Virus record (IMG/VR): IMGVR_UViG_3300042691_051382
DNA: 64,000 nucleotides
Origin: a virus
Strand: one strand, 5' to 3'
Shown: one piece after another, positions 35,359-63,999 of the stretch
How the letters are laid out: every line of letters begins with the position of its first letter
How positions within the stretch are numbered: the first letter of the stretch is position 1
The notes under the pieces: model-generated
What the model saw: the letters and a program-made list of their open reading frames with translations, nothing else
Database searches by the model: none
Told to the model about the DNA's origin: nothing
Made by a program: the position numbers and the translations under genes

Positions 35359-36732
35359 TCAGAACAAATTGTCTACTCTGCATATTCTGTAATATTGATT
35401 TGCACGAGCCGAGAGCGTCTGACCGTCAGCAGCACCGGTGCTTGTGTTGTACACGAATGGGTTGCTTACGAGACCATAACGCGTCTTGAACGCAATCTTG
35501 GGCTGGAACGTGTCTTGACCAACCGCACGCACCATCTGGAGCGGCACGTATGGGCAGTAGAACAGACCAGCGTCGAATGGCGAGCTACCCTTGTAACCAA
35601 CGCAGAAGAAGTCGCGCTGGAGCGAAGAGTATGGGTCGATGTGCACGCGGAACTTGCCGTTGAGCACACCAACGAATGTGTTGCCCGTATCATCAACGTT
35701 GAGGTTGGTGTTGAGGGCTGGGGCGTAATCGAGAACGCCTGCCATGGCAAGAGCCGAGGCAACGTCGCTCGAGCAGAGCACAAAGTTACCCTTACCACGA
35801 CGGGTCTCCTTGGCGATCTGGTTGGCTTCGCGTTCGATCTGGAACAGCAAGCCCTTGAACTTTTCGGCACTCCAACGACCGTTCGAGTCAACGTTGAGAT
35901 CAAACACGCCGGTGGTCTGAGTGGTACCAGCGCGTGCGCCGAGCTTGGCTACACCGTAGATGGTACGAACCACTTCGCGGTTGATTTCAGCGAGGATTTC
36001 AGCCGAGAGGATGTTGGCGAGTTCGGTTTCGGCATCGAGACCGTGAACAGCCTTGAGATCCTGAGCGAGTTCGAGCGAGTATTCAGCCTTGAGAGCGCGT
36101 GTACGAGCTTCAACGACTGTCTTCTCGATCGAGAATGCCATCTGAGCGAATGGGTTGGTTGTGGAAGGATCACCGAGACCTTCACCGTCACCCGTGCGAT
36201 AACCACGATAAGCCGTGATACCAGCAGCAGATGTGGAAGTTGCAAGTCCAAACGGATCCGAGGAGTACGTATCGCTGTACTGACCGTTGGTTGGACCAAG
36301 GGCAGCGGCAGCAAACGAACCGGTAGAACCCGAACCACCAAAGCGCGTGTCGGCTTCGAGGAACAGGGCTTCGTCACCCGTCTGGCTGGCGTAACGGCTG
36401 CGCATAGCGAAGATAAGTCCTGTAGGACCGCTCATTGGCTGCACACCGCAGATATCGTACGCAACCAAGTTTGGCATGGCGCGACGAACGAGGCTGATGA
36501 GAATCGGATCCCACAGCGAAACGTTGCCACCCATACCGTTCGAGCTGGTACCGAGCGATGGGTTGGTACCGATCGAGTTGGCTGGGCTGGCTTCGCGAAG
36601 GTGCTGCTGTTGATTTTCGAGAAGCACAGCAGTGACCTGCTTGCGATAGCTATCGGAAATTTCGGGCATGTCCGTGTGTTCGAGGATTGGTGCCCACTTC
36701 TTCATAATTTTTTCTGATACTCTGAATTCCAT
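35359..36732 (-). CDS. gp23: Major capsid protein
   Basis: LISLVRRAMPNL.AYDICGVQPMSGPTGLIFAMR, RALKAEYSLELAQDLKAVHG, FYCPYVPL, TFQPKI.FKTRYG. Confidence 0.98.
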   Translation of the reverse strand: MEFRVSEKIMKKWAPILEHTDMPEISDSYRKQVTAVLLENQQQHLREASPANSIGTNPSLGTSSNGMGGNVSLWDPILISLVRRAMPNLVAYDICGVQPMSGPTGLIFAMRSRYASQTGDEALFLEADTRFGGSGSTGSFAAAALGPTNGQYSDTYSSDPFGLATSTSAAGITAYRGYRTGDGEGLGDPSTTNPFAQMAFSIEKTVVEARTRALKAEYSLELAQDLKAVHGLDAETELANILSAEILAEINREVVRTIYGVAKLGARAGTTQTTGVFDLNVDSNGRWSAEKFKGLLFQIEREANQIAKETRRGKGNFVLCSSDVASALAMAGVLDYAPALNTNLNVDDTGNTFVGVLNGKFRVHIDPYSSLQRDFFCVGYKGSSPFDAGLFYCPYVPLQMVRAVGQDTFQPKIAFKTRYGLVSNPFVYNTSTGAADGQTLSARANQYYRICRVDNLF

Positions 36733-36757
36733 TTAAAATCTCCTTGAGAATTAAATT

Positions 36758-36765
36758 TATTTATA
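36758..36765 (-). promoter_or_regulatory. Late promoter TATAAATA (gp23)
   Basis: Exact motif upstream of the gp23 RBS (AAGGAG). Confidence 0.8.
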
Positions 36766-36767
36766 AT

Positions 36768-37964
36768 TTACTTTTTTCCAAAACGAGCGAGCGTTTGGAC
36801 GTATTGGTCCATGCTCTCGTTGAGTTCCACTACATCGTTGTTGCTGGCCACATCGTCAACCGATTCGGTGAGATAGTTCACCGGAGCGGATGGTGTGGAG
36901 ATGGTTTCGCCAAAATAGCTTTCTTTGATCGTGTTGATCTTGTTGATGAAGTTTTCGTCGGTGTCGTAGTTGACATTTTCGCAAAGCTTCATAAAGCGTT
37001 CGAATTCTGCGGCTGTGAGTTCTTCGCCAAGAGTGGCAACCACTTCGTTGCGGCGATACGACTCGATCGATTCGTTCAAATCGATGTTGCGGTTGATTTC
37101 GTCGTTGAGACGACCTTCGAGTTCGTCAATCTTTCCGCTGAGTTGTTCCACAAGGTTCACATCGCTATCGGGAACATCCACACCGTGTTCAACAAACAGA
37201 GTGCGAAGACCTTCGATAAAGCTTTCGGCGATTTCGAGACGCACGCCGTTTTCGAGTTGAAGACGATTTTCTTCGACCCATTCGTTCACAACATAACCAA
37301 GATACGAATCAACTTGTTCGTTAATTTCGTTTTTGACGATTTCAACGTATTCTTCGGCAAGTGCTTCGTATTCGTTTGCAATCGATTCACGAAGCGATTG
37401 TTCGCGTTCGTCGAGAGCCGTTTGGAAGATAAGAGCAGCCTTCTGCTTGAAATCTTCGCTGAGAGTTTCGCCGTTGAACAAAGCCGAAAGGTGCTCTTCC
37501 ATCTTTTCAGATTTCATTGGCTTCTTTTCCTTGAGCATCGGCTTGTTTTCGTCGCCTTCGTATTCTTCTTCCTTTTCGCCCATTTCTTCTGATTCTTCGC
37601 CCTCTTCGCCTTCTTCGTCGTTAGACTTGGTGGCAACCGGAGCAGATTTGGTGTTTCCGAACGTATCGGTAGCACCAAAGCTCATCTTTTGAGATGTGTT
37701 CTTGGCTTTTGGATCCTGTGAAGGATGCACAGCCGTTGGAATCTTGGCGAGGAGCGATTGAATCACATCCACTCCAGGACCTTTGAGAATCACTTCTCCG
37801 CCCTGTGAAGGTTGTGAAGGCATCTTTCCAGCCGCATCTTGAGAACGTGTGGCTTCAACGTTCTTCATTTGCATGGCTTTACCATTTACGGGATTGGTTT
37901 CAGCCATTTCCTTTTTGTTTTCTTCTTCAACAAGAATCTGCTTGATTTGTTCTAAAGGATCCAT
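36768..37964 (-). CDS. gp22: Prohead core scaffold protein
   Basis: LSEDFKQKAALIF, VDSYLGYVVNEW.EEN, AESFIEGL, IKESYF. Confidence 0.92.
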   Translation of the reverse strand: MDPLEQIKQILVEEENKKEMAETNPVNGKAMQMKNVEATRSQDAAGKMPSQPSQGGEVILKGPGVDVIQSLLAKIPTAVHPSQDPKAKNTSQKMSFGATDTFGNTKSAPVATKSNDEEGEEGEESEEMGEKEEEYEGDENKPMLKEKKPMKSEKMEEHLSALFNGETLSEDFKQKAALIFQTALDEREQSLRESIANEYEALAEEYVEIVKNEINEQVDSYLGYVVNEWVEENRLQLENGVRLEIAESFIEGLRTLFVEHGVDVPDSDVNLVEQLSGKIDELEGRLNDEINRNIDLNESIESYRRNEVVATLGEELTAAEFERFMKLCENVNYDTDENFINKINTIKESYFGETISTPSAPVNYLTESVDDVASNNDVVELNESMDQYVQTLARFGKK

Positions 37965-37999: not shown

Positions 38000-38003
38000 A
38001 AAA

Positions 38004-38648
38004 TTAAAGTTTACCTAAGAAATCTTTGAACGCTTTTAATGCACATTCTTCGAGATTTCTAGAGGATGCTTTTTTGATTTGTTTCTTGTAATTTTCAATT
38101 TCGACGCTTTTGAGAACACCCGACTCGTAAATCCATTCGCGTGATTCCATTATGCCACGCACAAACGCATCGGGTGCGCTGGGATCAGCCACGATATCGG
38201 CTGCGGTTGCCAAGCGGAAATCGTCGTTTACATACGAAACGCCGTTTTGTTCGCGAAGCGTACCCAAACCACGGCTCGAAACTCCGAGTTTTGCGCCTTC
38301 GTCGATCAAATTTTTAACAATTTTACCGTATGGGGTGTCCATGATTTTGGCTTTACCGATGAAGTTGTTGCCTTCACGGTGAAGATCCTTGATCATGTGG
38401 CTAACGCGTTCGAGGTTGATTTGTGGACCATCCGGGTGACCAAGTTCGCCAAAAGCGCGATTTTGGTTCACAAAAGAGTTCATGTAGCGATCCACTTCGT
38501 TTTCCAAAACATGCATTTCATAAACACGACCGTTGCGATTGCGCATTTCACCCTGAAGAAAAACTCCTTCGATGAAATGCTGCTTGCTGTCGCCTTTTCC
38601 TTCGGTGATGATTTTGATGCTTTCGTTGACTTCGGTGATGAGTTTCAT
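38004..38648 (-). CDS. gp21: Prohead protease
   Basis: MKLITE, NRNGRVY, GELGHP, GVSSRGLG, DIVADPSAPDAFV. Confidence 0.97.
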   Translation of the reverse strand: MKLITEVNESIKIITEGKGDSKQHFIEGVFLQGEMRNRNGRVYEMHVLENEVDRYMNSFVNQNRAFGELGHPDGPQINLERVSHMIKDLHREGNNFIGKAKIMDTPYGKIVKNLIDEGAKLGVSSRGLGTLREQNGVSYVNDDFRLATAADIVADPSAPDAFVRGIMESREWIYESGVLKSVEIENYKKQIKKASSRNLEECALKAFKDFLGKL

Positions 38649-38658: not shown

Positions 38659-39120
38659 TTACATTTGACGGATGTATCCGCCGTTCTTGTCTAGTTCCAA
38701 TATGACCGTTACCGTGTCGTTGGTTGTCATTGCACTGGTGTTTCTTACTTGAACATAGTTTCTGCGAGTGGCTGCGGTGTCGGTGTTGCGGAAAACTATT
38801 GCATCTGCGGTGTAATTGACGTATCCGCTGCCGTTCAAGTACAAAAATGGAGTTCCGGTGAGCGAACCGCTAACACCCCACGACAATTCAACCGCTGTTC
38901 CGGTTGCGCCTTGAGGAAGACTCCAAAACACCTTGGATACGTTTATGTTCACGGCTGTGCTGCCGGTTGCTTGTGTGCTGTCGTAGCCGGTCAAACTGCT
39001 AGCCTGAATCGATCCAGTCAAGTTTCCGGCAGCAACAGCACCACCGCCACCGCCATAGATGAATTGCACGACCGATCTTTCGTAATTATCATAAAGAACG
39101 TTGGTTGTAAATTGAGGCAT
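38659..39120 (-). CDS. Putative virion structural protein (GxT-rich)
   Basis: In the head cluster; GATAAATA late-like site at ~39149. Confidence 0.6.
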   Translation of the reverse strand: MPQFTTNVLYDNYERSVVQFIYGGGGGAVAAGNLTGSIQASSLTGYDSTQATGSTAVNINVSKVFWSLPQGATGTAVELSWGVSGSLTGTPFLYLNGSGYVNYTADAIVFRNTDTAATRRNYVQVRNTSAMTTNDTVTVILELDKNGGYIRQM

Positions 39121-40039: not shown

Positions 40040-41734
40040 TTAAAGTCTTGGTTGTTCTTGTTGTGTTGGTTCTAGAGATGGTTGCTGCTGAGTCTCGTCG
40101 GACGGCGGCTGTGACGCATCTTGCTGCTCTTGGGGTTGCATTTCGGATTGAGCCGATGGTGTTTCGGTATCGGTTTGCTGTTGAACTTTTTGCGCTTCGG
40201 CTTCGGCTTCGATCTGTTGTTTTTGTTTTTCCATTTCTTTTTCTTGATCGATCTGCATCTGCATTATTTCGATTTCTGTGTCGTTCATTCCCAATATATT
40301 CTTTTTGATCCAGTATTGAGAATAATAAACACCAACATATGCTTGCAATTGACCAAGAACATTTGCACGCTCGAGTGCAACTTCATTTTCTTTGAGTTCC
40401 GCAAAATAACTGTCTTTCAAGAAATCAAAGAATATTTTGTCTTTGATGCGATTCCACTCGCGCTCGTTTATTATTTTCTTGAGAATAAGTTGTGTTTTGA
40501 GAAGATTGTAGAAAAGTTCCGAGAACTTGTTGCGAAGACGATTCACAAACTTGGCGAACTTGATTTCGTCGCGTGTGATTTCGGTGCTTTTGCCGATGGT
40601 GAAGCTCTTTTGTTCGCCATCCATACGCGATAATGGAACATTCAAGCTCTTGTAAAGCTTTTTCAGGAAATATTTAACGTCTTCTAGTTCGCTGAGATTC
40701 TGAGCACCTTGAAGTGTTGTGATTTCGGTGCCTTTGCCACCTTCGCGGCGCGGCAACCAATAATCTTCCAACATGCTCATGTGGCGGCGATCGTCGCGTA
40801 TTTCGCCGGTGCTAGCATCGTAAATGAGCTTGTTGCGATACTTGTTCATCAGATCGCGAACATATTGCTCGGCTTTTTGCTTGGGCAAGTTACCAACGTC
40901 GATATAAAAAATACGACGCTCGGGTGCACGGCTAAGACGGTAAATCACTACCGCATCTTCCATCATTCGCAGCTGATTCAACGGTTTGATGGCTTTGTGC
41001 AAGTATCCAACCGTGCGCTTGTTTCGACTGTCGAAAAGACCCGAAGTAACATAAACAACAGCATCCGGAGAGATTCGCAGTGCACTGCTGGCACTCGATC
41101 CAGTGTTCATGTTCATACCGGTTCTGAAACCATCTTTGCTGTAAACGTAAAATTCTTCGGCACCGGTTATGATTCTGTGACCCTGTGCGTTCAGTTCTCG
41201 CTTGTACTGTTTTACTTTTTGTATGTTTACAGGATCAACATAACGAACTTCTGCGATACCACGTTCGGGTGTTTTATCGTCTACGATAATATGGTACACC
41301 AACTTTCCGTCGATGTACCATCTACGAAATATCTCGTAACCTTTGGTTTGAAAATTTAAAAGCGAAAGTACGTTGTTGAATTCTTTGATGATGCGGCGTT
41401 TGATGTCATCGCTGTATTCTACTGCATCCAATATTATTTTTACCGGAGCAGAATTTTCTTCGCTGACAATTGCATCAGAAACAATATCATCGACTGCCGC
41501 TTCGCATTCGGGATGCATCGACATTTCGCGATATTTGTATATCAAATCCGCATCGTTGCGGGTTGTGTGATCGAAATCAACGTACTGACCAAAAAAGCCA
41601 CCAACGGCTTCGATACTCACAGCATCGTCGTCGTTTTGCGGCAAAACAAAAGACCGCCGAATCTTCTTGTTTTCACTCGAAGACAGCGGTTTTTTGTCGG
41701 AACCAAGTTTTAAACCAAAAAGTTTAAATTCCAT
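40040..41734 (-). CDS. gp20: Portal protein
   Basis: YLHKAIKPLNQLRMMEDAVVIYRLSRAPERRIFYIDVGNLP, EDYWLPRREGGKGTEI. Confidence 0.98.
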   Translation of the reverse strand: MEFKLFGLKLGSDKKPLSSSENKKIRRSFVLPQNDDDAVSIEAVGGFFGQYVDFDHTTRNDADLIYKYREMSMHPECEAAVDDIVSDAIVSEENSAPVKIILDAVEYSDDIKRRIIKEFNNVLSLLNFQTKGYEIFRRWYIDGKLVYHIIVDDKTPERGIAEVRYVDPVNIQKVKQYKRELNAQGHRIITGAEEFYVYSKDGFRTGMNMNTGSSASSALRISPDAVVYVTSGLFDSRNKRTVGYLHKAIKPLNQLRMMEDAVVIYRLSRAPERRIFYIDVGNLPKQKAEQYVRDLMNKYRNKLIYDASTGEIRDDRRHMSMLEDYWLPRREGGKGTEITTLQGAQNLSELEDVKYFLKKLYKSLNVPLSRMDGEQKSFTIGKSTEITRDEIKFAKFVNRLRNKFSELFYNLLKTQLILKKIINEREWNRIKDKIFFDFLKDSYFAELKENEVALERANVLGQLQAYVGVYYSQYWIKKNILGMNDTEIEIMQMQIDQEKEMEKQKQQIEAEAEAQKVQQQTDTETPSAQSEMQPQEQQDASQPPSDETQQQPSLEPTQQEQPRL

Positions 41735-41751: not shown

Positions 41752-42291
41752 TTAGGTGCTTACTCCACCACCGATTTGGTAGTACTGATACTGCAATTCT
41801 ACGGTGAACGTTTCGATTGCATCTTTAGCACCGTAATCGAGCGCGATATCGCTGATCGCCGATGGCCAGCAGTCAACAAACTGATAAGTTTGCACATCAC
41901 GACCTTGACGATCGAGTTGTGTTACTTGCCACTGCTGTGCGTATTCGCTGAGACCCAAACGACTCACGTTTGTTTCTACGCTGTTTACACGGTTGCTCCA
42001 CGCTTCGAATGCTTTGCGAAGAGGATATCCCGTGTCGTTGAGAACCGTGATGGTCCAAGATGCGAACGAGCGGTCACCAGCCAAAATCAAAGGTCTTCCC
42101 TGAAAGAAAGTTGTTACGGTTCCAACCGTTACAGCAGGAATGCTGGCTGCGCTACAAAGAAACTGAATATCGTTTGCCGGGTTTGTACCGGATATTGCGA
42201 CCGACACCGCAGGAAATGTACCGTTGACACGATACAAGTTTGCGCGTGCGCCGCCACCCGTTAACTTGTTTTTAAACTCTTGAATGTTCAT
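41752..42291 (-). CDS. gp19: Tail tube protein
   Basis: GGARANL, AGDRSF.SWTITVLND, WPSAISDI.L, IETFTVELQY. Confidence 0.95.
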   Translation of the reverse strand: MNIQEFKNKLTGGGARANLYRVNGTFPAVSVAISGTNPANDIQFLCSAASIPAVTVGTVTTFFQGRPLILAGDRSFASWTITVLNDTGYPLRKAFEAWSNRVNSVETNVSRLGLSEYAQQWQVTQLDRQGRDVQTYQFVDCWPSAISDIALDYGAKDAIETFTVELQYQYYQIGGGVST

Positions 42292-42336: not shown

Positions 42337-44142
42337 TTAGTTGGATCCCGGACGAGTAAGGCTTGCGACTTCTTCGAAGTTCACACCGGTTCGGGTAGCG
42401 ATAAAGTTAAGTTGAATGAAGTTGATGCTGCGTGCTGGCTTGATGTAGATGTCAGCCACAAAGCGGTTGCTGTCGATAACTTCTGGGGTGTTGTTTGTTT
42501 CGTCACAAATAACCTTGAAGTCGTACACACCGCGGCGTGCCTGAACATCACGAAGGAATGGTTCAACCATGCTTACAAACATCGAGCGAGTAAACGCATC
42601 GTTGAATTCGAACAGTTGATACTTGGCAGCAATCGAAATTGCTTTCTCAAGAACTATAAACAAGCGGCGCACGTTGATGCGATCAAACGCACTCGGCTTG
42701 GTTTGCGCAGTACGATCGCCGTACAACACGGTTCCTTCGCCGGGGAACGTAACCACGGGATTGATACCCTTGGGATAAATGTTGTCGCGATAAGCTTGTG
42801 TTGGGTTCCATGCAAGTTTGATAACACCCTTGATGTTTCCACGGTTGAAACCGGCAGGCGACCACCAAGGATCGTTGGTTTCATCGGTACGAACCACAAG
42901 ACCAGCAATATCGCCATTCAACGGAACGTAACGGTAGATGTCGTTGTAACGATCATACATTTGCTTGTAACCGCTATCGATGAATGCGTAGCTGTTGCTA
43001 CCGATTGCATTTTTCATAGCAATTGCTTTATCTTGCGCAAGAGTATTGCGAGCTGCACCAGAAACACCCGAACCAGCAATTTTTTCATCGATATCAGGCG
43101 AAACAAACGCAACACAATCTTTACGATCGCGTGCTACTTCGCACATTGCGGCTGCACCTGCTCCGGTGAGAGGTCCACCAAGAAGAAGCGAAACGTCCAC
43201 CGTGTCGGGATCGCCAAAGAATTCGTCGTATGCTGCACCAAGTTCGTTGTTGTCCACACCAGTCAGAGAGTCGGCAAGAGTGCCAGCCGTGAACGAAGCA
43301 ACAAACAATCCAGCTGTAGATCCAGCCGCTGCTGCGCCTGCTGTTGCAGAAATAGATCCAAACGATGAGTTTTCGGAAGTGTAATTTCCGATACCTTGAA
43401 TATGGTTCATCCAGTAAATATAAGCGGATGTATCGTTGAGTACGTTCTTGTAGTAGTTGCTGCTACCGTCAGATTTACGAGCATCGCTAGCCTTGGAAAG
43501 ACCATCAAATATTTCCAAAACGCTTCCGGTAACACCAGTGTATTTACCGTTTGCATCGATTACAGCAACGTGAATTTCGTCGCCGTAGAATGCTGTGGAT
43601 CCACCCTTGGCATTTTCAACAAACAAAGATGTTCCGGGTGCGCTCACAAATTGACCGCTGAGGCTCCAGCTGTTGAAAGCTGTTGCGCTATCACATACTT
43701 CGATGCGCAAGCTGTTTCCAAAAACACCAGCGTACTTGGCTGCAAAGTATGTTGTGGATGAAGGTTCATAATATCCAGCACCAACAAGATTTTCGAAACG
43801 ATCGGCATTTTCGATCAAAACGCCTGTGGATGCGCCTGTGGATCCGCTCAAACCCACCACCGAGTTTCTTGCGGCACTTCCAGCTTCCAAAAATCTTACA
43901 ACTTGAACGTTGTTGCCGTATTGAAGAAAGTTGGCAACCGTAAAAAAGTGCTTGTAGTTGTTGTTGTCGGGACCGCCGTACAACTGATAAAGATCGTTTT
44001 CGCTTGAAACAACAATGCGTTGATTGGCTGGACCCCAATTGAAAAGTCCAACATACCCAGCTGGTGTGGTTGCAACTGCAGGAATGATGGAGGTGAGGTC
44101 GCGTTCGACTACTCTAACGCCGGGGCTGATTTGAAAACCCAT
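42337..44142 (-). CDS. gp18: Tail sheath protein
   Basis: FQISPGV..ERDL, RKDCVAFVSP, PWWSPAGFNRG, FDRINVRRLF, IKPARSINFI.LNF. Confidence 0.97.
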   Translation of the reverse strand: MGFQISPGVRVVERDLTSIIPAVATTPAGYVGLFNWGPANQRIVVSSENDLYQLYGGPDNNNYKHFFTVANFLQYGNNVQVVRFLEAGSAARNSVVGLSGSTGASTGVLIENADRFENLVGAGYYEPSSTTYFAAKYAGVFGNSLRIEVCDSATAFNSWSLSGQFVSAPGTSLFVENAKGGSTAFYGDEIHVAVIDANGKYTGVTGSVLEIFDGLSKASDARKSDGSSNYYKNVLNDTSAYIYWMNHIQGIGNYTSENSSFGSISATAGAAAAGSTAGLFVASFTAGTLADSLTGVDNNELGAAYDEFFGDPDTVDVSLLLGGPLTGAGAAAMCEVARDRKDCVAFVSPDIDEKIAGSGVSGAARNTLAQDKAIAMKNAIGSNSYAFIDSGYKQMYDRYNDIYRYVPLNGDIAGLVVRTDETNDPWWSPAGFNRGNIKGVIKLAWNPTQAYRDNIYPKGINPVVTFPGEGTVLYGDRTAQTKPSAFDRINVRRLFIVLEKAISIAAKYQLFEFNDAFTRSMFVSMVEPFLRDVQARRGVYDFKVICDETNNTPEVIDSNRFVADIYIKPARSINFIQLNFIATRTGVNFEEVASLTRPGSN

Positions 44143-47492: not shown

Positions 47493-47499
47493 AAAATTC

Positions 47500-49244: not shown

Positions 49245-49285
49245 ATGTAATTATTTAGGTTTTTGGATCCACGGGATTGTCGGGT

Positions 49286-51228: not shown

Positions 51229-53793
<2,565 letters not shown>

Positions 53794-53803: not shown

Positions 53804-54931
53804 TTAACCTTCGCCGTTCATAAGTGCTTCTACCGCAAACTTATGATTGGCTTCGATGCGTTGTCTTTGATCTTCTGGGAATTTCTTTTCACCAAGCAAG
53901 CGATCACCAACAAGTTTTGCTTCTTTGTGGTGTCCACTCCAATATGCAGCAATGCAGAATTCATCAAGAATGCTCCACTCGTATATTGGTTGACTCACAA
54001 ACAAAGCTCCTTCTGGCATGCGAAGCTTGAGAGCTTGTTTCGCAAAAATATAAGCTTGATCAAATCGACAGAACATTCTGCAAATGCGAGCAGCAGCCCA
54101 AAGTGATTCGGCACGCCAAGGATTGATTTGATATGCTTGAAAATAAACTTTGATGATATCATCGATTGGATGATTCAAAATTTCTTTGATACGACCTACT
54201 TGAAACAAGCTGTAGAAAACTTCTTCGTTCCATCCACCCAGTTCAGCACGCTTGAGATAAGCGTCATGAGCTTTTTGCCACTGTTGGCTGTCGCGATACG
54301 ATTGAGCAAGATAAAAGTGATAACGATTAAAATCTTTTTCATCGACTGGACCTTTAAGGGCTTCTTCGAAAGTTTCAGCATCGCGACCATATTTATCGGG
54401 AGTCTTGCTGCGTGCTCCGTCTTGAATTGGTCGGTTCAAGATACCTTTTGCAAAATCGCGCGATTCGATAGGATCATGGCAATCAACATATTCATGCAAA
54501 ACGCCTCGATAGTAAAAACGCTTGCGGTTTGCTGTCAGCTGGGGACGGTGATACTTGATACCGCCATAAAAAGCAAACACGTTGTAAAGATCGGTGGTGA
54601 GATTGTCTTTGAAACTTTCTGGATCAAAATTACCATCATATTCCATGATTTCATCTGCATCGATCATGATCGTGTAATCGCCCATTGGTCTAGCAGCTTC
54701 GAGAGCTTCGCTTCGACTTTCGCCGAAACCTTTCCATGTGCTTTGCACAAGCTTTCCTTGAATACCAACATTCTCAAAAAACTTTTCAATTTTTTCTTGA
54801 GTTCCATCGGTGCTGCCGGTATCGACGATGCACCAAGTGTCAATCAAAGGAAGCATCGAAGCCAAACAGCGTTCAATCACATGCGCTTCATTTTTGACAA
54901 TCATCGACAATACCAATTTATTCTTAGCCAT
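53804..54931 (-). CDS. GT2 glycosyltransferase with TPR repeats
   Basis: [42 protein letters not shown], then TPR-like helices. Confidence 0.9.
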
Positions 54932-54947: not shown

Positions 54948-55193
54948 TTAAGAAGATCTGCTGTTATTTATTAGAATTTTCAACATGTCTTTTATATCGT
55001 TCACGTTGTTTTCTAATTTTTCAATGCGTTCGTTAATATCACCAATTCGAGATATATTTAGTTCCCTTTTTTGAGCCTCTAAAAAAGCTTTCTTTTGTGC
55101 CAAGCTTGTTGCGACGATAGCATTGCTGCTGGTGTCACGAACAAGACCCGGTTCGTTTTCAACTTTCAAATATTTTGGTCCGATTGGGTTCAT
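54948..55193 (-). CDS. Conserved T4-like hypothetical protein
   Basis: KVE...LVRD..SNAI...I..LE..V.DIK.ML pattern, following the VrlC-like gene. Confidence 0.7.
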   Translation of the reverse strand: MNPIGPKYLKVENEPGLVRDTSSNAIVATSLAQKKAFLEAQKRELNISRIGDINERIEKLENNVNDIKDMLKILINNSRSS

Positions 55194-58100
55194 GTTGCGA
55201 TCACCTTGAAACCTTTGAACGATGGAACAACCGTGTTTGTGTAATCACCATACATTACGACTTTAACTTGGAATTTTCTGAATTCTTCTTGTCCAGTTAC
55301 ACCCGATGTTCTAGAGGTAGCAGTACCACCTCTTGTAAATCTTAAATCAACATAATCATCCTCTCCAACGGACAGATATTGAGATGTAACGCCGTAAGAA
55401 GTTGCATAAGAGGGATGAATTGTTAATTTTTCATATGGTATATCTTCGAATCGAGTGTTGTCGGTTTTAGCTTGAGATTTCAAGTAAACGCCAATATCGC
55501 TTCCGCGTGGCAATCTTGCAGTGAGATATACGTCGATATTGGTGGACTCGAATCCGTCTTGAAGATTTATTTGACGACTGATATAACGCATAGGCGAAAC
55601 TTCGCCACTTGTGATACCAGCGACCGAAGGTAAAGATTCGTATGTTTCTTGTGTAGCTTGGTCGTTAAAGTTCAAAATCAAATTCTGGACATACAAACCG
55701 CTAACACGTTGAAGATCAAGAGCTGGTGTTACAGAATTGTTGTCGGTGAAAAGATTTATTGCGGCTGTTATTGTATCGGTACCTACGTTCTTAATATCTT
55801 TCTTAGACGCAAAAATTAAATTCTCATTTTGAAGAATGCTGATAGGACCTTGAGCGTCGCCTTCAAAATCTACAGTTGCCGATACATTTGTTGATGGTGG
55901 TGCGATGTATGTTGAGTTGAGACGGAACAGATTTGCACCGTTGCTCAATCCTGGAGATCCAGAATCAAAATTCGTTTCGGTGAAATTGAAATAAACTGTA
56001 CCACCGGAAGTATTAAACACACACTTGTGTATTGTAAATTTCAAATCGAGAAGTTGTTCGGCAGTCCATGTGCTCGAGTTTTGCGATTTGAAGAAAGAGC
56101 CACCATACGGCTGAGTAGCGATAATTTCATCGGTTATGGTGTCGTTTTGACCGACTTCGCTAACGAATACTTCATATTCGTTGCTGTTGCTCAAAAGAAC
56201 CATGGAATATTCGCCGGGTTGCAAATAAATCGGACTGTCAAACTGGAAAGTGGTTGAAGAACTACCATCTTCAGAAATATTAACATCCGATGGTAATTTT
56301 ATAACCTCGCTGAACGGAATGATTATTCCCGAGCTTGGATAACCGTTTACTGCGGGTCTCAACTGCAAAGTTATTGGAAGATTCGAAGACTTGGTTTTGA
56401 AGAACACATCAACTTTGCTTATGTACAAACCATTTGGATTTGCAACAGGATCCACAAGGAATGTTTGAGCAACAGGATCCACATACTCTGAGCGTGTGTC
56501 TGTAACTATCGTGTTGTTGAATATTCTGTCTTCGGTTACAGATTCTCTTCTGATAACCAGATTTCTTGTGGAAAGAATAGTATTTTCTTCGGTCTGTACC
56601 AAACCCTGTGCGCGGAAAGAATCTTCGGCAGTGGTTGTACAATTGGAAAGTATATTCGAAGAGTCGTCGATCAATCGCAACAGACGATCGCCGGTTCGGA
56701 AAGTCGCAGAGGGTACACCAAATGTGATTCCTTGAGAATATCCAACTCTTCCGTTAACGTCAGTGATTATTGAACCACCGGTAACACCATCAACGCGTAC
56801 GTACTGTGATATATCTTGATTATCGAAGAACGGGTATACTCTAACATTCGGGCGCATACCGTCAGCTTTTACGTTGATGTCGATGCTGCGCATAAATGGT
56901 ACAATACTCACATCTACGATTCGACTGCCGATATTTCGTGTGGTGGTTTCTGGTACCAATCGCGTACGAATACCGGTTCTCGATTGAGCAGATTCTTGTG
57001 TTGCTTCCAAACCATAGTCTACACGTTGAACCTTTTTGTTTTTTGTGCCGGGTTTAATAACGCTATGTGGTGGTGTTCTGCCAATTTCACGCCAAACACC
57101 GGTTGCAACTGGCGTTCCGGTCCAAGTGGTTTCCCAGTTGTTCCACACAGTTCCAAAGTCAACTTCCGCTAAATCTCCAACGCCATCGTTCTGACCGTTA
57201 ACGTTCACAACAACGTCCGGAAGTGTTTGCGTATCGATCCAGTCGTCCGACTGAGGAATCATCGTCAAACGTCCATTGAAGTTTGTCACATCAAATGGAT
57301 TGACGTTGATAGATTTTGAAGCAAATCGTTGCTGTATGAAAACATCGGTTGTGTAGTTGCAAGTAAGCAAACCGTTTGTGTTGAATGTCAATCCCGAAGG
57401 AATGCTGCCGCTCAATCCAAAATCCACATACTTTGTGGTGAAGCGTGGTCTGGCTTCCAAGCGAACAGGATCAATTGCACAAAGATGATCTCGATTCAAA
57501 TAATCTGAATTGGTTCTTGAATCAAAATTATCTACAAATATACCGTTTTTAAATTTATTGAGACCGTTTTGATCTTGAATTTCTAAAGTTTTGGCTTCTT
57601 TTTCAGCCAAGCTTAAGGTAGTATAATATTCCAAACGATCGATTCTCTTTTCGAGAGAACCAATATCGCGCATTGTGTATCTGCGATTCTTGACGATAAA
57701 TTTGGTTGTGTCTAAGTTAGATTTAGTGTACGGAAGGAACGTTATAGATGCCAAAGTCATAGCATCCGATATGTCTTGTGGTTCTGGTGCTTGATCGTTA
57801 GCAGATATTCCTTGCACAATTCTGAATTCTTTATCGCGTGTAAGTACAATCTTGTCGGTTCTTGGTTGATAGTAACTCCAAGCGATATCAAAAGAATTGC
57901 CAATTAGGTTGCAACCACCTGTCGCACCATAATCTTGAGGATACGATGTGATACCAAAAGAAGATGGTGTTATGCGATCGGGGCGTGCATCCAAACACCC
58001 ACCAAGAGAAATGACTTTTCTTGAACCGGTTTCTTCAACATAAATTGGTATTTCTTTGTATGCTGCACCGGTTCCGCTGACCATTGTTGATGGATCACCG

Positions 58101-60226
58101 TACGAATTGAGCAAATAAGGAGCAGATGATGCTGGGTGGTTGTAGCGTTTGAAAGTTACGCTAACACCAGTGACACCAGCAGAGAAATAATTTTTCTTCA
58201 AAACTATTCTCGACCAATCGTAGATACTATCGCGTTGACCGGTATCAAGAGTAAAGTAATCGGTCATCGAGAAAGAGCTACCACCAGTGTTTCCGGTGAT
58301 GGATACCACTTCGTACGCATCAACTTTACCATTTAAATACGCATATTTTTCGTATGAATTGGCGACCATCGAAACGTTTATACTTTCAGTCACAGAAGTT
58401 TTGGTTCTGAAGAATGGATTGTTGGTGCTGCTTTCGGAAATATCCATGTTGACGAAAACAACAGCTGTTCCACCCGAACCCGCAGTTATGCTGAAACTTT
58501 GTGCGCCAAAAGCACCGCTCAAATACAAACTTACAGGATTGCCGGTCAAACTGAATGCCTTTACGTCGTTGAACGAAGTAAAGTCCATCCAACTTCCGCT
58601 TGAAAACTCGGTACCAGCATCAAAATCAGTTACACTTACTGTTGTCGGTGAAGATGTGCTCAAATTAAACTGTGCAGATCTTTGAATATTGATACCATGA
58701 GAAATGATTTGTCGAACAGCATAACTGGAAATATCGTTTGATAATGGAAACACCAAACTGGAATAGCTAGCGTCGGTCACATTAAGATTACCGCCAGAGA
58801 AATTAAACACATGTTGATCGCTAGCTGTATATCCAGGAAGGAACATTCTTTGTGCTGCAGATGCGGTATATCCCGAATCCATCGAAATATCATAAAGGTG
58901 CAACTTGGTTCCAGAGTATTCAACAGCATCAAATTTACCCAAACGAGCCGTGCCTACGCGAGAAAAAGAACCAGTTGCTCCAGAACTTAAATAAAACAAC
59001 GGAGAACCATTAAAATCAATCAAATTAAATATGTTAGCAGTTAAACTCGAGTTGGTAGTAACGTTTACGGTATTTCCAATAACAAACGGAACTTGTTGTT
59101 CGGAATCTAATGTTTTTATGTTTCTAGCTTTGTCGGCAGTCAAAGATTTAGTGGCTTGATTTATAAATTCATAACCAAAAATGTATGCTTTACCTTTACC
59201 GATGTTGATTTTTAATTGGCTTTCATAAGCATCTGCAGTTATCTCGGAAATTGATATCTGAAAATCTTCTACGGTATAGTTACCGGATTCGTCGTATGTT
59301 CTTCGAGCCAATGTATCGGCTAAAACATTATATTCCGGATAATTTGTTTTGTAGGTAACTTCATCGTTTTCAATTTTCAGCAATTGATAATCGGCTGTTG
59401 ATGAAAGTGGTGCGTGGTTCAAATCCAAGTCCAAACGATAACGGTCCGCGCCTGGTGCAGCATAGTTGTAAGAACCAAAAGCAGGATCGTTCAATGATGT
59501 ATCGTCTGTTGCCGTTACAATAGTATTTGTAACATCAAATTTTACAACCGAATTAAGATTATTAAATTTTCTATACGAGTTGGCGGTTGAAGTGCCAGTT
59601 ATTGTGTAAGGAGTGGTTTTTTGCTTGTCGTGATTTACAAAATAACCTTTTATATATCTAATACCAGCATCAATACCAACAAGTTTTGCATCACCGAATG
59701 CTGGTAAAGAATTTGGTGCACCACTGTATAAGTTATAAGTTGAAGTACCACCTGTAATTGTTGCGGTGATAGTTGTGCCTTCATAAACCGCACTGATTGT
59801 GTCACCAAGATCAAAACCTGTAGCACCAAAAAGATATTCGCTGAAAAATAATAAAGATGAAGTGTCTTTATTTGATCCACTCAATCCAGCAAGTGTATCA
59901 ATAATTCTGATTGTGTTTTTACCGGAAACGGTGGCGGTCAATCCATCAAAATCTGAAACAGAAACTCCGGCATATCCAGTTAAAGAATCGATACGAACAA
60001 ACTGAGCGTCATTTACAACAACTTGACTTTCGCTGACGATACTGCCGTCTTTAAATATGTGATCGCCAAATCTTTTTATTTGATTTTGAAGGATTGTTTG
60101 TGATTGTGTGAGTTCTCTAGCTTGAACAGCGTAACCAGGCTTGTACAAAACTCTCAAAAACTTCTTGTTGTCGTCGTAATCGTCATAATAAGGATCAACA
60201 TTGAATACTTCTGGATCGTAAGCCAT
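55190..60226 (-). CDS. Large virion structural protein (VrlC / DUF4815-like)
   Basis: PYYDDYD..K.F.RVL.KPG.AVQARELTQ, LARRTYDESGNY, RRYTMRDIG.LEKRI..LEYYT, FKNGIFVDNF. Confidence 0.88.
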   Translation of the reverse strand: MAYDPEVFNVDPYYDDYDDNKKFLRVLYKPGYAVQARELTQSQTILQNQIKRFGDHIFKDGSIVSESQVVVNDAQFVRIDSLTGYAGVSVSDFDGLTATVSGKNTIRIIDTLAGLSGSNKDTSSLLFFSEYLFGATGFDLGDTISAVYEGTTITATITGGTSTYNLYSGAPNSLPAFGDAKLVGIDAGIRYIKGYFVNHDKQKTTPYTITGTSTANSYRKFNNLNSVVKFDVTNTIVTATDDTSLNDPAFGSYNYAAPGADRYRLDLDLNHAPLSSTADYQLLKIENDEVTYKTNYPEYNVLADTLARRTYDESGNYTVEDFQISISEITADAYESQLKINIGKGKAYIFGYEFINQATKSLTADKARNIKTLDSEQQVPFVIGNTVNVTTNSSLTANIFNLIDFNGSPLFYLSSGATGSFSRVGTARLGKFDAVEYSGTKLHLYDISMDSGYTASAAQRMFLPGYTASDQHVFNFSGGNLNVTDASYSSLVFPLSNDISSYAVRQIISHGINIQRSAQFNLSTSSPTTVSVTDFDAGTEFSSGSWMDFTSFNDVKAFSLTGNPVSLYLSGAFGAQSFSITAGSGGTAVVFVNMDISESSTNNPFFRTKTSVTESINVSMVANSYEKYAYLNGKVDAYEVVSITGNTGGSSFSMTDYFTLDTGQRDSIYDWSRIVLKKNYFSAGVTGVSVTFKRYNHPASSAPYLLNSYGDPSTMVSGTGAAYKEIPIYVEETGSRKVISLGGCLDARPDRITPSSFGITSYPQDYGATGGCNLIGNSFDIAWSYYQPRTDKIVLTRDKEFRIVQGISANDQAPEPQDISDAMTLASITFLPYTKSNLDTTKFIVKNRRYTMRDIGSLEKRIDRLEYYTTLSLAEKEAKTLEIQDQNGLNKFKNGIFVDNFDSRTNSDYLNRDHLCAIDPVRLEARPRFTTKYVDFGLSGSIPSGLTFNTNGLLTCNYTTDVFIQQRFASKSINVNPFDVTNFNGRLTMIPQSDDWIDTQTLPDVVVNVNGQNDGVGDLAEVDFGTVWNNWETTWTGTPVATGVWREIGRTPPHSVIKPGTKNKKVQRVDYGLEATQESAQSRTGIRTRLVPETTTRNIGSRIVDVSIVPFMRSIDINVKADGMRPNVRVYPFFDNQDISQYVRVDGVTGGSIITDVNGRVGYSQGITFGVPSATFRTGDRLLRLIDDSSNILSNCTTTAEDSFRAQGLVQTEENTILSTRNLVIRRESVTEDRIFNNTIVTDTRSEYVDPVAQTFLVDPVANPNGLYISKVDVFFKTKSSNLPITLQLRPAVNGYPSSGIIIPFSEVIKLPSDVNISEDGSSSTTFQFDSPIYLQPGEYSMVLLSNSNEYEVFVSEVGQNDTITDEIIATQPYGGSFFKSQNSSTWTAEQLLDLKFTIHKCVFNTSGGTVYFNFTETNFDSGSPGLSNGANLFRLNSTYIAPPSTNVSATVDFEGDAQGPISILQNENLIFASKKDIKNVGTDTITAAINLFTDNNSVTPALDLQRVSGLYVQNLILNFNDQATQETYESLPSVAGITSGEVSPMRYISRQINLQDGFESTNIDVYLTARLPRGSDIGVYLKSQAKTDNTRFEDIPYEKLTIHPSYATSYGVTSQYLSVGEDDYVDLRFTRGGTATSRTSGVTGQEEFRKFQVKVVMYGDYTNTVVPSFKGFKVIAT

Positions 60227-60237: not shown

Positions 60238-62586
60238 TTAAAACTCAACAATCAGTTTGATTTCTTCTTTTTGTTCCAATGCTCGTTCAACAGGACGAAT
60301 ATTTTGAAGGTGAAGCACGGTTCCCGAACGATATTTCAGCTCTGGTTCCGAAATTATCGATGATATAACCGCGCCGGTTGTTCCGCTATTATTATATATT
60401 AAGTTTTGTGAAACAGCAAAAGATCCACTAATCGGAAGTAATCTTAAATTACCCGTAGTTGCGCCTGTGGCTGGAGTCCAATCCATAACGTAACCAGATG
60501 CGCTTGTGTTGGTAACGATCGAATCGCGAGTGAACGATTCGTCGTCAAATGAAACGGTTCCATCATAATACACTTCGAGACGCACGGTTTGATCGTAAAC
60601 CGTTTGCGAAGTTTCTTCGTATTCATCGATTTCGATTATCTTACCGATTGGTCCAGTTATCCCACCATAGTCGTTTCGCATCTGATAGATGTTTTCCGAC
60701 ATGTTGAAATTGCCATTAGGATATTCCAAATAAAGATTTCCAACTGCGTTTGTTCCGGTTTCGGGTTGCCATTTGTATATTTTTCCGTTAGACACAGAAG
60801 CTGTAATTTTATCACCTGTGTTTCCGTTACCAAAAGCAATATAATTCAATGTGAAATCGAGACCCGACGCATCAAAAGTGGATGTTTGTGATGGTGTTAA
60901 CTTGAGACGCTTGAGCAATCTGTATTCGGTTCCGGCGATTGTTTTTTCGTGAACTGAAACTATTTCTTGAGCGGTGATACCATTTACAAAACCACCAATC
61001 TCGAAATCGCCACCCGTTATGTTTCCGAGTGTGAGTTCGGAAGTTCCGGTGGTTCCCAATTTTCCAGATTTCCATGCTAGAATTTTTGCACTCGCTGCAT
61101 CGTAGCCAGTGACTCCGTATGCACCCGTGAGCGATTGCGTGGCGGTTGCACCGACTGTAAAACTGCTTGTTAAACCAGCACCCAACAAATTCACTCGAAT
61201 TTGTTTTTTACGCAAAAGTGGATTTTTCAAAAGAGCAAATTGACGATAATCGTTTTCGGTTGTAATTTTGCAACTTTCACCTTGCTCGAAATCTGTTACA
61301 ACCATCAAAGATGAAGCTCCAAGTTCACGAACCGGATTCGATCCGTGACCACCAATCGGAGACATTATGGCGGTTGCAAGCAAATTCATATCTGCGCTGA
61401 TTCCCGAAGCGAAAGTCAACCCTGCTATCACATTTACCGACGCATATGTGTAGTTCTTACCGTTGTTGATCAATTCGAAACGATCGAGATAACGCTGTCC
61501 CGTGGTACCTTCACACGAACACGAACCGGTTGAACTTGTGGCGGATATGGCCAAAAAAGAAACGCTAATCTCTGCCGCAGTTGCAGATGTGTGCAAACTG
61601 TTGGCATCGGCGATTCCATCGCCCGAAACAACAACTGTTGGTAATATCGAATAATATGTTGGATCTGCTCCACCGCTCACACCAAAATCTAATGGTGTTG
61701 CGAGCACAACTGTGGCGGTGCTGTTTGCGTTATTTACGAAATCTACAATTTTTCTCTGCTGACCCGAACCGCTTCCGCTTTCAAAGCGAATGCTCATGTT
61801 ATTGTAATAATCATTCTGATACACCAACTTTGATCCGCCGATTATAACAGCGGTGGCACCAGCAGCGGTGGTTCCTGCAACTTGATTTGCGGTGTCGAAA
61901 AACAACACACGATCCGAAATAACAACATCACGCAACGATTCGTTCAAATTTATAAAATCGATAGAGCCATCCACCGCATCGTTTTGAACATCGTATTGTA
62001 GTTGGCGGTCATCGTTTTCGTTTACACTTGTTACAAACTCAACCGGCATATAGCCGATACTCACGCCTTGTGTTTTTGTTAAAAACTTTCTTTTGGATTC
62101 GGATATCGAATAAAGATATTTCCATCGGTATCCATCCGAAAGCGTACGTATTTGAGAATCTGTATGTGTAGGTGCTACAGTAGAAGCAGCTCCGTAATTG
62201 TTATCGATACACTTGTAAACGCGTTCCTCGTCCACCAAAACATAAAATTTAGATGGAGTGACATCGTCGTACAAATCGATAGAGTCACGATAAGGATCAA
62301 AAACAATGTTTGGTTCCCAATCGTAACGTTTTATAACTATCGATACGTCGGATTTTTGTATCTTTTTGAACGCCATTGCTGTGCGCCAAAAGTCTGTATC
62401 GGATTTTACGCAGTCGATATTTTTGGGTGGAGCATTGTCTTGATTTGCACCAGATGCGCTGATCCATTCGGTTGGTTTACCGATACCAAGGAAAACGGTA
62501 TCGCCCGACAACACATCAAAATTTTGATAAAAATCTTGTATAAGATACTGTCGAAAATCTTGTCTAAATGGATCACATACGGGCAT
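60238..62586 (-). CDS. gp8: Baseplate wedge subunit
   Basis: VYKCIDNN, DGYRWKYLY, PIGGHGSNPVRELG, NDYRQ..L.KNP, QKEEIKLIVEF. Confidence 0.9.
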   Translation of the reverse strand: MPVCDPFRQDFRQYLIQDFYQNFDVLSGDTVFLGIGKPTEWISASGANQDNAPPKNIDCVKSDTDFWRTAMAFKKIQKSDVSIVIKRYDWEPNIVFDPYRDSIDLYDDVTPSKFYVLVDEERVYKCIDNNYGAASTVAPTHTDSQIRTLSDGYRWKYLYSISESKRKFLTKTQGVSIGYMPVEFVTSVNENDDRQLQYDVQNDAVDGSIDFINLNESLRDVVISDRVLFFDTANQVAGTTAAGATAVIIGGSKLVYQNDYYNNMSIRFESGSGSGQQRKIVDFVNNANSTATVVLATPLDFGVSGGADPTYYSILPTVVVSGDGIADANSLHTSATAAEISVSFLAISATSSTGSCSCEGTTGQRYLDRFELINNGKNYTYASVNVIAGLTFASGISADMNLLATAIMSPIGGHGSNPVRELGASSLMVVTDFEQGESCKITTENDYRQFALLKNPLLRKKQIRVNLLGAGLTSSFTVGATATQSLTGAYGVTGYDAASAKILAWKSGKLGTTGTSELTLGNITGGDFEIGGFVNGITAQEIVSVHEKTIAGTEYRLLKRLKLTPSQTSTFDASGLDFTLNYIAFGNGNTGDKITASVSNGKIYKWQPETGTNAVGNLYLEYPNGNFNMSENIYQMRNDYGGITGPIGKIIEIDEYEETSQTVYDQTVRLEVYYDGTVSFDDESFTRDSIVTNTSASGYVMDWTPATGATTGNLRLLPISGSFAVSQNLIYNNSGTTGAVISSIISEPELKYRSGTVLHLQNIRPVERALEQKEEIKLIVEF

Positions 62587-62607
62587 ACGTTTCTCTCTTT
62601 AATATAT

Positions 62608-63999
62608 TTATGGGTCGAATGATACATCTATCAAATCTGATTGGGTTGTTCCAGTGGCTGATCCGAAACCGCCACCGGTTAAACCGCCACCAAAAATATC
62701 TGGTATGATTTCGCTTGAATCGATTTGGAATGTTCCGGTGAATCCAGCCGGGAATCCGGTTGCTCCTGTTGCTCCTGTGGAACCAGTTGGAGCGGTGACA
62801 CCAGTCAAACCACCTGTTGTGCTTGTTGTTATGTAACAAATCGTGGCTTGCAGCAAATTGTTGGGGCTTGCATCGTGTGTGATTTGATTTGCCCATTCGA
62901 GAGCACAACGGAATTCTTCACCAACTGGCATATTAAAAAAGCTGTTTAAAGTTATTTTTCTAAACTCTGTGTTGCTGGAATATCTCAAAATTGCATATTT
63001 AAAATCACCAGTAAAACTGCTAGCCCAACCGTATCGCAACGAATCGGATGTCAAGTTCCATTCGGGCCACGATTGCGAGCCAGTTGTACCCAGCAAAAAG
63101 TCGTTTTTACCGGCTCCGACGCTAGCGGTTCCGTAAATACCTTTAAGATCGTATTCGATGCGAGCCAACACCGGCTCGTTGATGCGTCGATTTGGATGTT
63201 GGTATATAACCCACCAGGGGTCCGATGCAGGAAATCCTAAATTTGCCAATGGCGACAAAGGAATCTCAAAATTTATGCCTTCCGACACAGGATTCGGTTG
63301 AGTGGTTAGTATCGGATCGTGAATATTGGGGTCGTAACCGTATGCTGTTGCGCCAAACCAACTTCGTAAATCATCAAAAGTTTCGTTTGTGTACGGTAAA
63401 TAGTGTCCAATCAACGGAACTTCGTATTTGATAAGCGCACTTTCTGCATCCAAATTGGATTGAGCGCATCTTTTTATCAAAACTTGACCAAAAAATCCAA
63501 GACCCGCTGGGTGAATAAGACGTTTGAGTGCATCTCGATATTTGTTTACCACAAGTTCTGTTTTGAGAACATACGAATAATTTTGGTAGTAGTGATTGTC
63601 TTGTAAAACTTTGTTTGTGCTGAGACGACCGTCGTTGTTGGCATAATATCCAGCGAAATTACAAACAGCACCAATTGAACATGTTCCGCTGAATCCTGTT
63701 CCTTTTTCGGAACGCACGGTTATTGAAGGTGCGGTGTTGTAATTTATACCAAAATCTTCTATTTCAATTTTTAATATCTTGCCAGAGTTGTTTACTTGTG
63801 TGACTTTTGCTCGTGCGCCTTGACCGATATCACCCGCTGCATTTGTGAACACCACTCGATCGCCGACACGATATCCAGAACCACCCGAAGATATTGTTAT
63901 GGTTGCAGCAACCGAATATATTTTTGGTTCGATTACTTTTTCGGTTGCAGTTTCTATTTCAAGCGGTCGAGTAGCAACAAACGATCCATTTATGTTTCC
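62608..63999 (-). CDS. Baseplate wedge initiator (gp7-like), 5'-partial
   Basis: Frame stays open to the window edge; LQDNHYYQNYSYVLK...LIHPAG..FFG motif; upstream of gp8. Confidence 0.8.
   Translation of the reverse strand, partial: GNINGSFVATRPLEIETATEKVIEPKIYSVAATITISSGGSGYRVGDRVVFTNAAGDIGQGARAKVTQVNNSGKILKIEIEDFGINYNTAPSITVRSEKGTGFSGTCSIGAVCNFAGYYANNDGRLSTNKVLQDNHYYQNYSYVLKTELVVNKYRDALKRLIHPAGLGFFGQVLIKRCAQSNLDAESALIKYEVPLIGHYLPYTNETFDDLRSWFGATAYGYDPNIHDPILTTQPNPVSEGINFEIPLSPLANLGFPASDPWWVIYQHPNRRINEPVLARIEYDLKGIYGTASVGAGKNDFLLGTTGSQSWPEWNLTSDSLRYGWASSFTGDFKYAILRYSSNTEFRKITLNSFFNMPVGEEFRCALEWANQITHDASPNNLLQATICYITTSTTGGLTGVTAPTGSTGATGATGFPAGFTGTFQIDSSEIIPDIFGGGLTGGGFGSATGTTQSDLIDVSFDP

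Follow-up and report, generated by a model that had tools for sequence, protein, structure and literature searches.

The 64,000-nucleotide (nt) IMG/VR virus record IMGVR_UViG_3300042691_051382 (the whole stretch that was analyzed, here called the window) has the gene order of a T4-like, cyanophage-type myovirus according to PHROG assignments, with nearly all genes on the minus strand. Within its structural module lies a gene for a predicted glycosyltransferase (GT) of 375 amino acids (aa) (positions 53804-54931, minus strand). What would such an enzyme act on, and do the virion proteins encoded around it share an acceptor word? A preliminary description of the sequence had proposed that short G-x-T motifs in outer virion proteins are O-glycosylation sequons. 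Judging from sequence, a structural model, and analogy with known enzymes, we think that the protein is probably a cytoplasmic GT2-plus-TPR protein O-glycosyltransferase directed at the Thr of G-[A/V/L/S/P]-T-G, with a collagen-like tail fiber as its primary substrate and sites scattered over other virion proteins as probable additional ones.

A predicted glycosyltransferase gene beside a collagen-like fiber gene

The preliminary description had noted a TPR-GT2 gene inside the structural operon, and Pfam, an AlphaFold 2 (AF2) model, and Foldseek all bear this out. Residues 10 to 97 match Pfam family PF00535 (Glycos_transf_2) with 45.8 bits (cutoff, 23.3), and among proteins of solved structure the closest in sequence is GmaR, through its GT domain (E value, 4.5e-9); NCBIfam gave the protein no specific name. 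The AF2 model, built on 31 homologs, reached a predicted local distance difference test score (pLDDT) of 93.3 and consists of a GT-A domain at residues 1 to 170 (strands and helices at 6 to 168) followed by 10 helices at residues 178 to 371. Pfam returned no TPR match in this protein at 1e-3, some homologs do have Pfam TPR matches, and the search against solved structures gave a weak TPR match at residues 209 to 304. Foldseek matched the C-terminal half to the TPR proteins OGT-TPR and CTPR. The DxD motif reads I-D-A-D-E (residues 90 to 94) and aligns with the IDADE of GmaR; D91, D93, and E94 are invariant in the 31 homologs. As modeled, an N-terminal GT-A domain joined in one chain to a TPR-like C-terminal domain is the architecture of GT2-TPR protein glycosyltransferases.

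The GT gene stops 10 nt before the fiber gene, and the gaps to its neighbors are only 16 and 10 nt, from which we infer that it is cotranscribed with the structural genes; a consensus scan of the window found no T4 late-promoter consensus ahead of it. That consensus, TATAAATA, stands directly upstream of gp23, gp22, and the sheath gene (36758, 37992, and 44210, minus strand) and occurs 9 times in the window, versus 2.6 expected. The fiber gene itself (51229-53793, minus strand) encodes 854 aa with Pfam Collar and Collagen matches and belongs to PHROG tail-fiber and collagen-like minor-tail families. Its collagen-like G-X-Y tract (residues 425 to 489; positions 52327-52521, minus strand) is mostly G-[APS]-T. 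The Pfam Collagen match (PF01391; 28.2 bits versus a cutoff of 27.2) covers residues 429 to 484, ~22 triplets with Thr mostly at the Y position. By analogy with SgtA of Clostridioides difficile, which is compared below, we have good confidence that an SgtA-like Thr O-glycosyltransferase serves this fiber.

Among 50,697 cultured phage records, 14 carried a homolog of the GT, and none of the 14 was T4-like. Metagenomes contain very many members of the family (6596 matches), and IMG/VR yielded 68 uncultured T4-like loci with the GT at 57 to 100% identity. Wherever the flanks of these loci were long enough, the gene was part of the structural module and came just before the fiber gene or gp13. It was 67 to 70% identical where gp13, gp14, gp15, and the sheath were only 40 to 55% identical to those of the window; this marks it as a long-standing and strongly conserved part of the module. 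The next open reading frame (ORF) after the GT had a collagen tract containing G-x-T-G in 45 of 67 loci, and the two upstream ORFs had one in only 5 loci.

Some annotations point away from a protein substrate. In PHROG the family carries the label beta-1,4-glycosyltransferase "moron," JGI names homologs cell wall biosynthesis enzymes, and in Foldseek TarS, TarP, and RmlT are further matches of the GT-A domain (E value, ~1e-6). On this account, the target would be nonprotein or belong to the host (a cell envelope polysaccharide, teichoic acid-like polymers, or phage DNA), and any motif excess would be unrelated. However, the TarS-type matches cover the GT-A half only, whereas the top matches, which run the full length (E values, 1e-14 to 1e-12; template modeling score, 0.64), are SunS and ThuS, peptide glycosyltransferases with GT-A plus helical repeats. 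The fixed place of the gene in the late structural operon over a clade as deep as 40 to 55% protein identity, and its repeated position beside G-x-T collagen genes in phages and bacteria, also argue for a protein substrate, and we consider a nonprotein target improbable.

The G-x-T-G word in virion proteins

All of the example strings quoted in the preliminary description are present in the proteins, and several virion proteins contain more copies of the broad motif [GS]xT[GAS] than their amino acid composition predicts (expected numbers per protein are from whole-protein composition shuffles). There were 33 copies in the fiber (7.0 expected), 26 in the 1678-aa VrlC-like virion protein (55190-60226, minus strand; phrog_358; homologous to VrlC of cyanophage Syn33; 6.7 expected), 16 in the gp8-like baseplate wedge protein (60238-62586, minus strand; phrog_438; 3.0 expected), and 12 in the gp7-like wedge protein (62608-63999, minus strand; a PHROG assignment to the C-terminal part of an ORF that leaves the window; 2.1 expected). 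The gp18 sheath (42337-44142, minus strand; PHROG) had 8 versus 1.9 expected, and the gp15 tail sheath stabilizer (47500-48369, minus strand; phrog_227) had 4 versus 1.0. A 205-aa, weakly beta-helix-like protein (50602-51219, minus strand; NosD match with an E value of 0.004) had 6 versus 1.6. Outside positions 35359 to 63999, a 317-aa ORF (6021-6974, minus strand) had 11 versus 3.0; its homolog in a relative, G003, adjoins the fiber cluster. The claimed rarity elsewhere held for gp41, gp46, gp47, gp55, the portal, gp21, and gp22, where counts were zero or at chance level, as they also were in the tube and TerL; it did not extend to UvsW, which has two G-x-T-G copies.

The excess is concentrated in one word. 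Over 16 virion proteins pooled, G-x-T-G occurred 53 times versus 5.1 expected, and masking collagen runs of at least four triplets left 37 versus 4.6 expected, whereas the mirror word G-T-x-G was at chance (6 versus 5.5 expected). Nonstructural proteins had 7 copies versus 2.9 expected. An unbiased scan covered every word that specifies two or three residues in a span of four positions; G-x-T-G ranked first (log10 P, -20.5), followed by TG, GxTA, and SxTG. Virion proteins are rich in Gly, Thr, Ser, and Ala, and the pattern had been spotted by eye on the same data, so that low complexity or the reader's eye might be held responsible. However, shuffling inside blocks of 10 to 30 residues gave only 6.1 to 7.5 copies (7.5 with 10-residue blocks; highest value in 500, 17), far below the 37 observed; local composition is therefore no explanation. 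Together with the mirror word and with relatives, in which the excess replicates at 40 to 55% identity but fails in equally Gly/Thr-rich cyanophage proteins, this rules out the low-complexity account, to which we give almost no credence.

Two other sources of the word were also rejected. The 53 sites comprise 47 different 12-mers with synonymous codons mixed, and the excess is frame specific, which rules out origin as a DNA motif; the variety of codons and 12-mers therefore indicates selection at the protein level. A mobile domain shared between the proteins is ruled out as a carrier, since the flanks have nothing in common. Usually V, A, L, or S stands at x, and positions -2, -1, x, and +4 exclude Asp.

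Isolated copies are abundant in the C-terminal part of the fiber, and the gp7-like protein has a short G-x-T run at residues 393 to 415. In gp15, the C-terminal segment (residues 235 to 254) reads GVTG and GVTGGATAG where GT-less phages conserve ADADDDFGF in the alignment. Across GT-bearing phages this segment is variable and the word occurs at shifting positions, which looks, from the sequences, like selection for presence of the motif and not for one fixed structural turn. The neck protein gp14 (48369-49244, minus strand) contains SGTG and GATGGGASGADATG, and the neck protein gp13 (49286-50122, minus strand) contains a single GQTG (both, PHROG). All 8 sheath motifs lie in a variable region (residues 100 to 292) and none lies in the conserved C-terminal core; by BLASTP, the variable region aligns with a poorly conserved region of T4 gp18, which we take to be outer domains I and II. 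In the major capsid protein gp23 (35359-36732, minus strand; PHROG), a variable loop contains GSTG and GITA, which are clade specific.

Enzyme and word across relatives

Relatives were sampled as loci found via the GT, plus a second set anchored on gp13; GT-less loci were those with at least 6 kb visible upstream of gp13. Regions of DLP_6 and P-RSM1 served only as nonstructural controls. In structural modules of GT-less T4-like phages, the G-x-T-G ratio was 1.35x for Syn33, 1.6x for S-SZBM1, and 0.9x for T4, with Gly and Thr contents equally high; VrlC of Syn33 has 1 copy versus 1.1 expected. Among the sampled loci, the ratio was 7.5x in 9 close GT-positive relatives, 3.2x in 38 distant ones, and 1.3x in 18 GT-less loci (mirror word, 2.03x, 1.2x, and 0.88x, respectively). 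Counted per protein in the distant GT-positive versus GT-less loci, G-x-T-G occurred 1.28 versus 0.16 times in gp15, 0.64 versus 0.08 times in gp14, 0.15 versus 0.02 times in gp13, and 1.59 versus 0.88 times in the sheath; TerL, the portal, and the tube had none in any group. In G003 (98% complete; GT, 71% identical), G-x-T-G occurred 79 times versus 32 expected in the virion modules and 9 times versus 8 expected in the other ~100 kb. The strongest outlier among loci classed as GT-less (L089; 4.5x) has a GT homolog elsewhere on its contig. Syn33, S-SZBM1, T4, and the 18 GT-less IMG/VR loci rule out a generic trait of T4-like virion proteins. The G-x-T-G excess is a real and directional one, under selection at the protein level, and it is specific to phages that carry the GT.

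Homologs outside the main clade show how the enzyme is placed elsewhere. In the family tree, the main phage GT clade is sister (support, 99/97) to a proteobacterial clade of Methylococcales, Hyphomicrobiales, and Reyranellales. Neither of these clades includes the GTs of G001 and G006 (L089 and L125), and gp15 and the sheath in these genomes are still enriched. In this second T4-like lineage, a GT homolog (~40%) ends an ~12-gene sugar biosynthesis island and fiber genes follow directly (L202, 5964-19900; L203, 1-13894), an arrangement that physically links glycan supply, transferase, and fiber. A fiber protein of L203 (15835-17316) contains a tandem repeat, NG-x-TG-D-V, a structural unit common to many phage fibers; structural repeats thus account for some of the G-x-T-G copies. 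In the jumbo phage Tunturi_5, a GT homolog (36%) is encoded 4 kb from the sole large collagen protein of the 308-kb genome, which has 330 collagen residues, 66 G-x-T-G copies, and Thr at most Y positions.

Bacterial homologs have similar neighbors. Of 17 bacterial loci, 8 had collagen-like proteins (6 to 51 G-x-T-G copies) encoded within 6 kb of the GT homolog; the eight include Methylovulum psychrotolerans, Panacagrimonas perspica, Reyranellales, several Methylococcales, and a Saccharimonadales genome. In the Reyranellales genome, the GT-neighbor gene holds every (GxT)4 run in 2.8 Mb. The Saccharimonadales genome has many (GxT)4 genes, and that case therefore carries little weight. GT homologs beside collagen-like proteins with 21 to 51 copies each were seen at L184 (609-2108), L190 (7207-11059), L185 (4065-5627), and L182 (7382-8107), in genomes of methanotrophs, Panacagrimonas, and Reyranellales. 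Judged by sequence, these pairs point to an uncharacterized bacterial surface glycoprotein system.

We hypothesize that the GT would be made late, along with the virion proteins, and would place the first sugar, taken from a common UDP-sugar donor (by analogy, UDP-GlcNAc), on the Thr of G-[A/V/L/S/P]-T-G. The main target would be the collagen-like tract in the fiber encoded directly downstream. Single copies of the word would have built up in the exposed, variable loops and tails of the VrlC-like protein, the gp7/gp8-like wedge, gp13, gp14, gp15, and the outer sheath domains, and in this scheme they would probably be modified too, giving a partly sugar-coated particle. Taken on its own, the proposition that the same GT also modifies scattered G-x-T-G copies on neck, sheath, baseplate, and VrlC-like proteins has, from sequence evidence, about an even chance of being correct.

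Several observations weigh against this hypothesis, mostly against its broader part. The Mann-Whitney P value of 1e-5 for co-occurrence of GT and motif ignores kinship and overstates independence. The co-occurrence that the preliminary description predicted was found, in that the excess is present in GT-bearing and not in GT-less phages, but GT presence largely follows one clade, and the co-occurrence therefore rests on few evolutionary events. L125 has a 40% GT homolog and yet a locus-wide G-x-T-G ratio of 1.0, and the collagen protein beside the GT of its lineage is of the GEQ/GPQ type without Thr. DLP_6 has G-x-T collagen tracts but gave no GT match in the cultured-phage search, and G-x-T with Thr at Y is the commonest type of bacterial collagen. 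Outside its collagen protein, Tunturi_5 has 25 copies versus 39.6 expected, that is, no excess, and its collagen fiber alone carries the motif; scattered sequons therefore characterize the T4-like clade, not the enzyme family. The AF2 model of the sheath is poor (pLDDT, 62), with the motif segments in low-confidence coil from which exposure cannot be read. Finally, the GPTG of gp23 is conserved in all T4-like phages, including GT-less ones, and a coated head is therefore poorly supported. In the glycan coat that the preliminary description had extended over head, neck, sheath, baseplate, and fiber, the head is the part with weak evidence.

The low-GC glycan island (14720-26379, minus strand) must be weighed here as well. 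Its existence, claimed in the preliminary description with 13 genes, was confirmed by Pfam, NCBIfam, and guanine-plus-cytosine (GC) content, with ~14 ORFs at a GC content of 0.30 to 0.35 versus 0.40 to 0.48 elsewhere in the window. The ORFs encode a sugar nucleotidyltransferase/phosphatase, two epimerase/dehydratases, two methyltransferases, Glf (UDP-galactopyranose mutase), GT90, DUF707, a GT10-like enzyme, and GT7; NCBIfam left the unassigned ones without a specific name. Three of the families, GT7 (beta-4-GalT-like), GT10-like, and GT90, are of eukaryotic type. A relative with an 89%-identical GT keeps Glf and lacks GT7, and neither was found in relatives G003, G004, and G005, which rules the island out as a core partner of the GT. 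Because it is not conserved among GT-bearing relatives, the island is not integral to the system, contrary to what had been proposed; it is possibly an accessory that elaborates the glycan in this phage, where it may extend the first sugar.

A narrower explanation is that the GT acts on the collagen-like fiber only, in the style of SgtA and BclA3, and that the scattered copies are an unmodified habit of the lineage, for example, beta-turns in Gly/Thr-rich exposed loops. Tunturi_5 and the bacterial homologs carry the word in collagen tracts only, many isolated copies in the virion proteins lie between hydrophobic strands, GT-less phages conserve GPTG as a structural word in their capsid, and, with GT status following clade, the scattered excess could be inherited independently of the GT. 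However, the excess occurs in at least eight nonhomologous proteins, at shifting positions in poorly alignable segments; it is absent from orthologs in GT-less phages; the separate GT lineage of G001 and G006 shows it again, in gp15 and the sheath; and the flanks have no common repeat unit, with Asp excluded around the Thr. We regard restriction to the fiber as unlikely, although clearly less so than a nonprotein target. What stands of virion O-glycosylation via a shared sequon thus comprises the enzyme architecture, the synteny with a G-x-T fiber, and the motif excess on exposed proteins of GT-bearing phages; against it stand the single clade, the weak head, the unconserved island, and the lack of scattered copies in Tunturi_5.

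In its most general form, our hypothesis is that an abundant and entirely uncultured T4-like clade writes a four-residue O-glycosylation code, G-[A/V/L/S]-T-G, into loops and tails exposed on at least 10 nonhomologous virion proteins, to be read by one conserved SgtA-like enzyme of the structural operon, with a coat on neck, sheath, baseplate, and fibers whose outer sugars are varied by swappable islands in the manner of O antigens. We hold this tentatively, as somewhat short of an even bet. The GT is in any case the best-conserved gene of the neck-fiber module in a large environmental T4-like clade, with thousands of metagenome homologs and none in cultured T4-like phages. If the hypothesis is correct, a minimal, predictable sequon would allow glycosites of phage particles to be read from sequence, the reason why conserved neck and sheath proteins bear variable, Gly/Thr-rich tails would be clear, and there would be consequences for adsorption, particle stability, and recognition by grazers or immune systems. 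A probable function is also predicted for an uncharacterized GT family in methanotrophs and other bacteria, namely, Thr glycosylation of G-x-T collagen-like surface proteins.

Remaining genes and known systems

The other structural genes of the window are given here in order of coordinate (PHROG assignments). gp22 (36768-37964) and gp21 (38004-38648) are followed by an ORF of 153 aa with 4 motifs (38659-39120, minus strand), for which PHROG and NCBIfam profile searches gave no family match. Next come the portal (40040-41734), which is only ~52% identical to that of the nearest cultured phages, and the tube (41752-42291). The TerL gene (44230-47004) is split by a homing endonuclease into two ORFs, one with TerL-N plus a homing endonuclease domain (45715-47004; phrog_5989 and phrog_655) and one with TerL-C (44230-45714). 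gp16, gp15, gp14, and gp13 form a block at 47001-50122, and a gene for an 81-aa virion protein lies between the GT and VrlC-like genes. Outside the structural module, UvsX (RecA-like; 26360-28521) carries an intein N part, after which come a free-standing NUMOD3 endonuclease ORF (26841-27563) and an intein C part fused to the UvsX C terminus (26360-26860). An 830-aa ORF (8466-10958) has a weak phrog_2599 match (ribosomal protein S6 glutaminyl transferase-like, RimK type) and a 1090-aa homolog in G003.

A literature search on O-glycosylation of phage collagen fibers returned nothing relevant and no publication describing this GT-sequon system. A close counterpart is SgtA of C. difficile, a protein of 358 aa with GT-A at residues 1 to 260 and four TPRs at residues 262 to 358, which is encoded directly upstream of bclA3 and in vitro transfers beta-O-GlcNAc from UDP-GlcNAc onto Thr, and also Ser, of GPT collagen repeat peptides (PMC7157674). 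The phage GT (375 aa) resembles SgtA in size, in its N-terminal GT-A/GT2 domain followed by C-terminal TPRs (TPR-like in the phage protein), and in the position of its gene immediately upstream of a G-x-T collagen-like gene, and the Thr of G-P-T-G, the acceptor of SgtA, belongs to a word shared with the phage proteins. The likeness is drawn from published architecture and not from sequence comparison. The two systems differ in that the substrate is on a spore in one and a phage virion in the other, and the phage word is also scattered singly over many noncollagen proteins. The phage fiber has a tail Collar; Pfam gave only Collagen and Collar, with no C1q/TNF-like BclA C-terminal domain or exosporium-targeting N terminus, and the BclA likeness is therefore confined to the G-x-T tract.

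SunS and ThuS (PDB 7msn, 7msk, and 7msp) likewise combine GT-A with a helical-repeat peptide-binding domain, are cytoplasmic, and act on a residue of a ribosomal peptide; they differ in being only 13 to 16% identical, in modifying small bacteriocin precursors, mostly at Cys, and in having no collagen partner. GmaR of Listeria monocytogenes, a flagellin beta-O-GlcNAc transferase with GT2 followed by TPR, acts on Ser/Thr of an exposed filament protein (PMC9638930). At 637 aa it is larger than the phage GT, with extra linker and anti-repressor domains, and for its substrate, flagellin, no sequon is defined. To our knowledge, phage-encoded virion glycosylation has been documented so far only for a few mycobacteriophages, and virion glycosylation is also found in giant viruses of eukaryotes. 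Freeman et al. (2023, Cell Host Microbe; cited in PMC12582341) are said to have found that glycosyltransferases encoded by mycobacteriophages modify capsid and tail proteins of the same phages. The modified sites are reportedly C-terminal extensions of capsid and tail tube subunits, with other GT types and no G-x-T-G word. The phage-encoded GT acting on its own particle is the feature shared with the system proposed here, and the phage group and the host differ. By analogy, virion glycosylation in the T4-like clade would combine known kinds, that of SgtA-BclA3 and that of mycobacteriophage virions.

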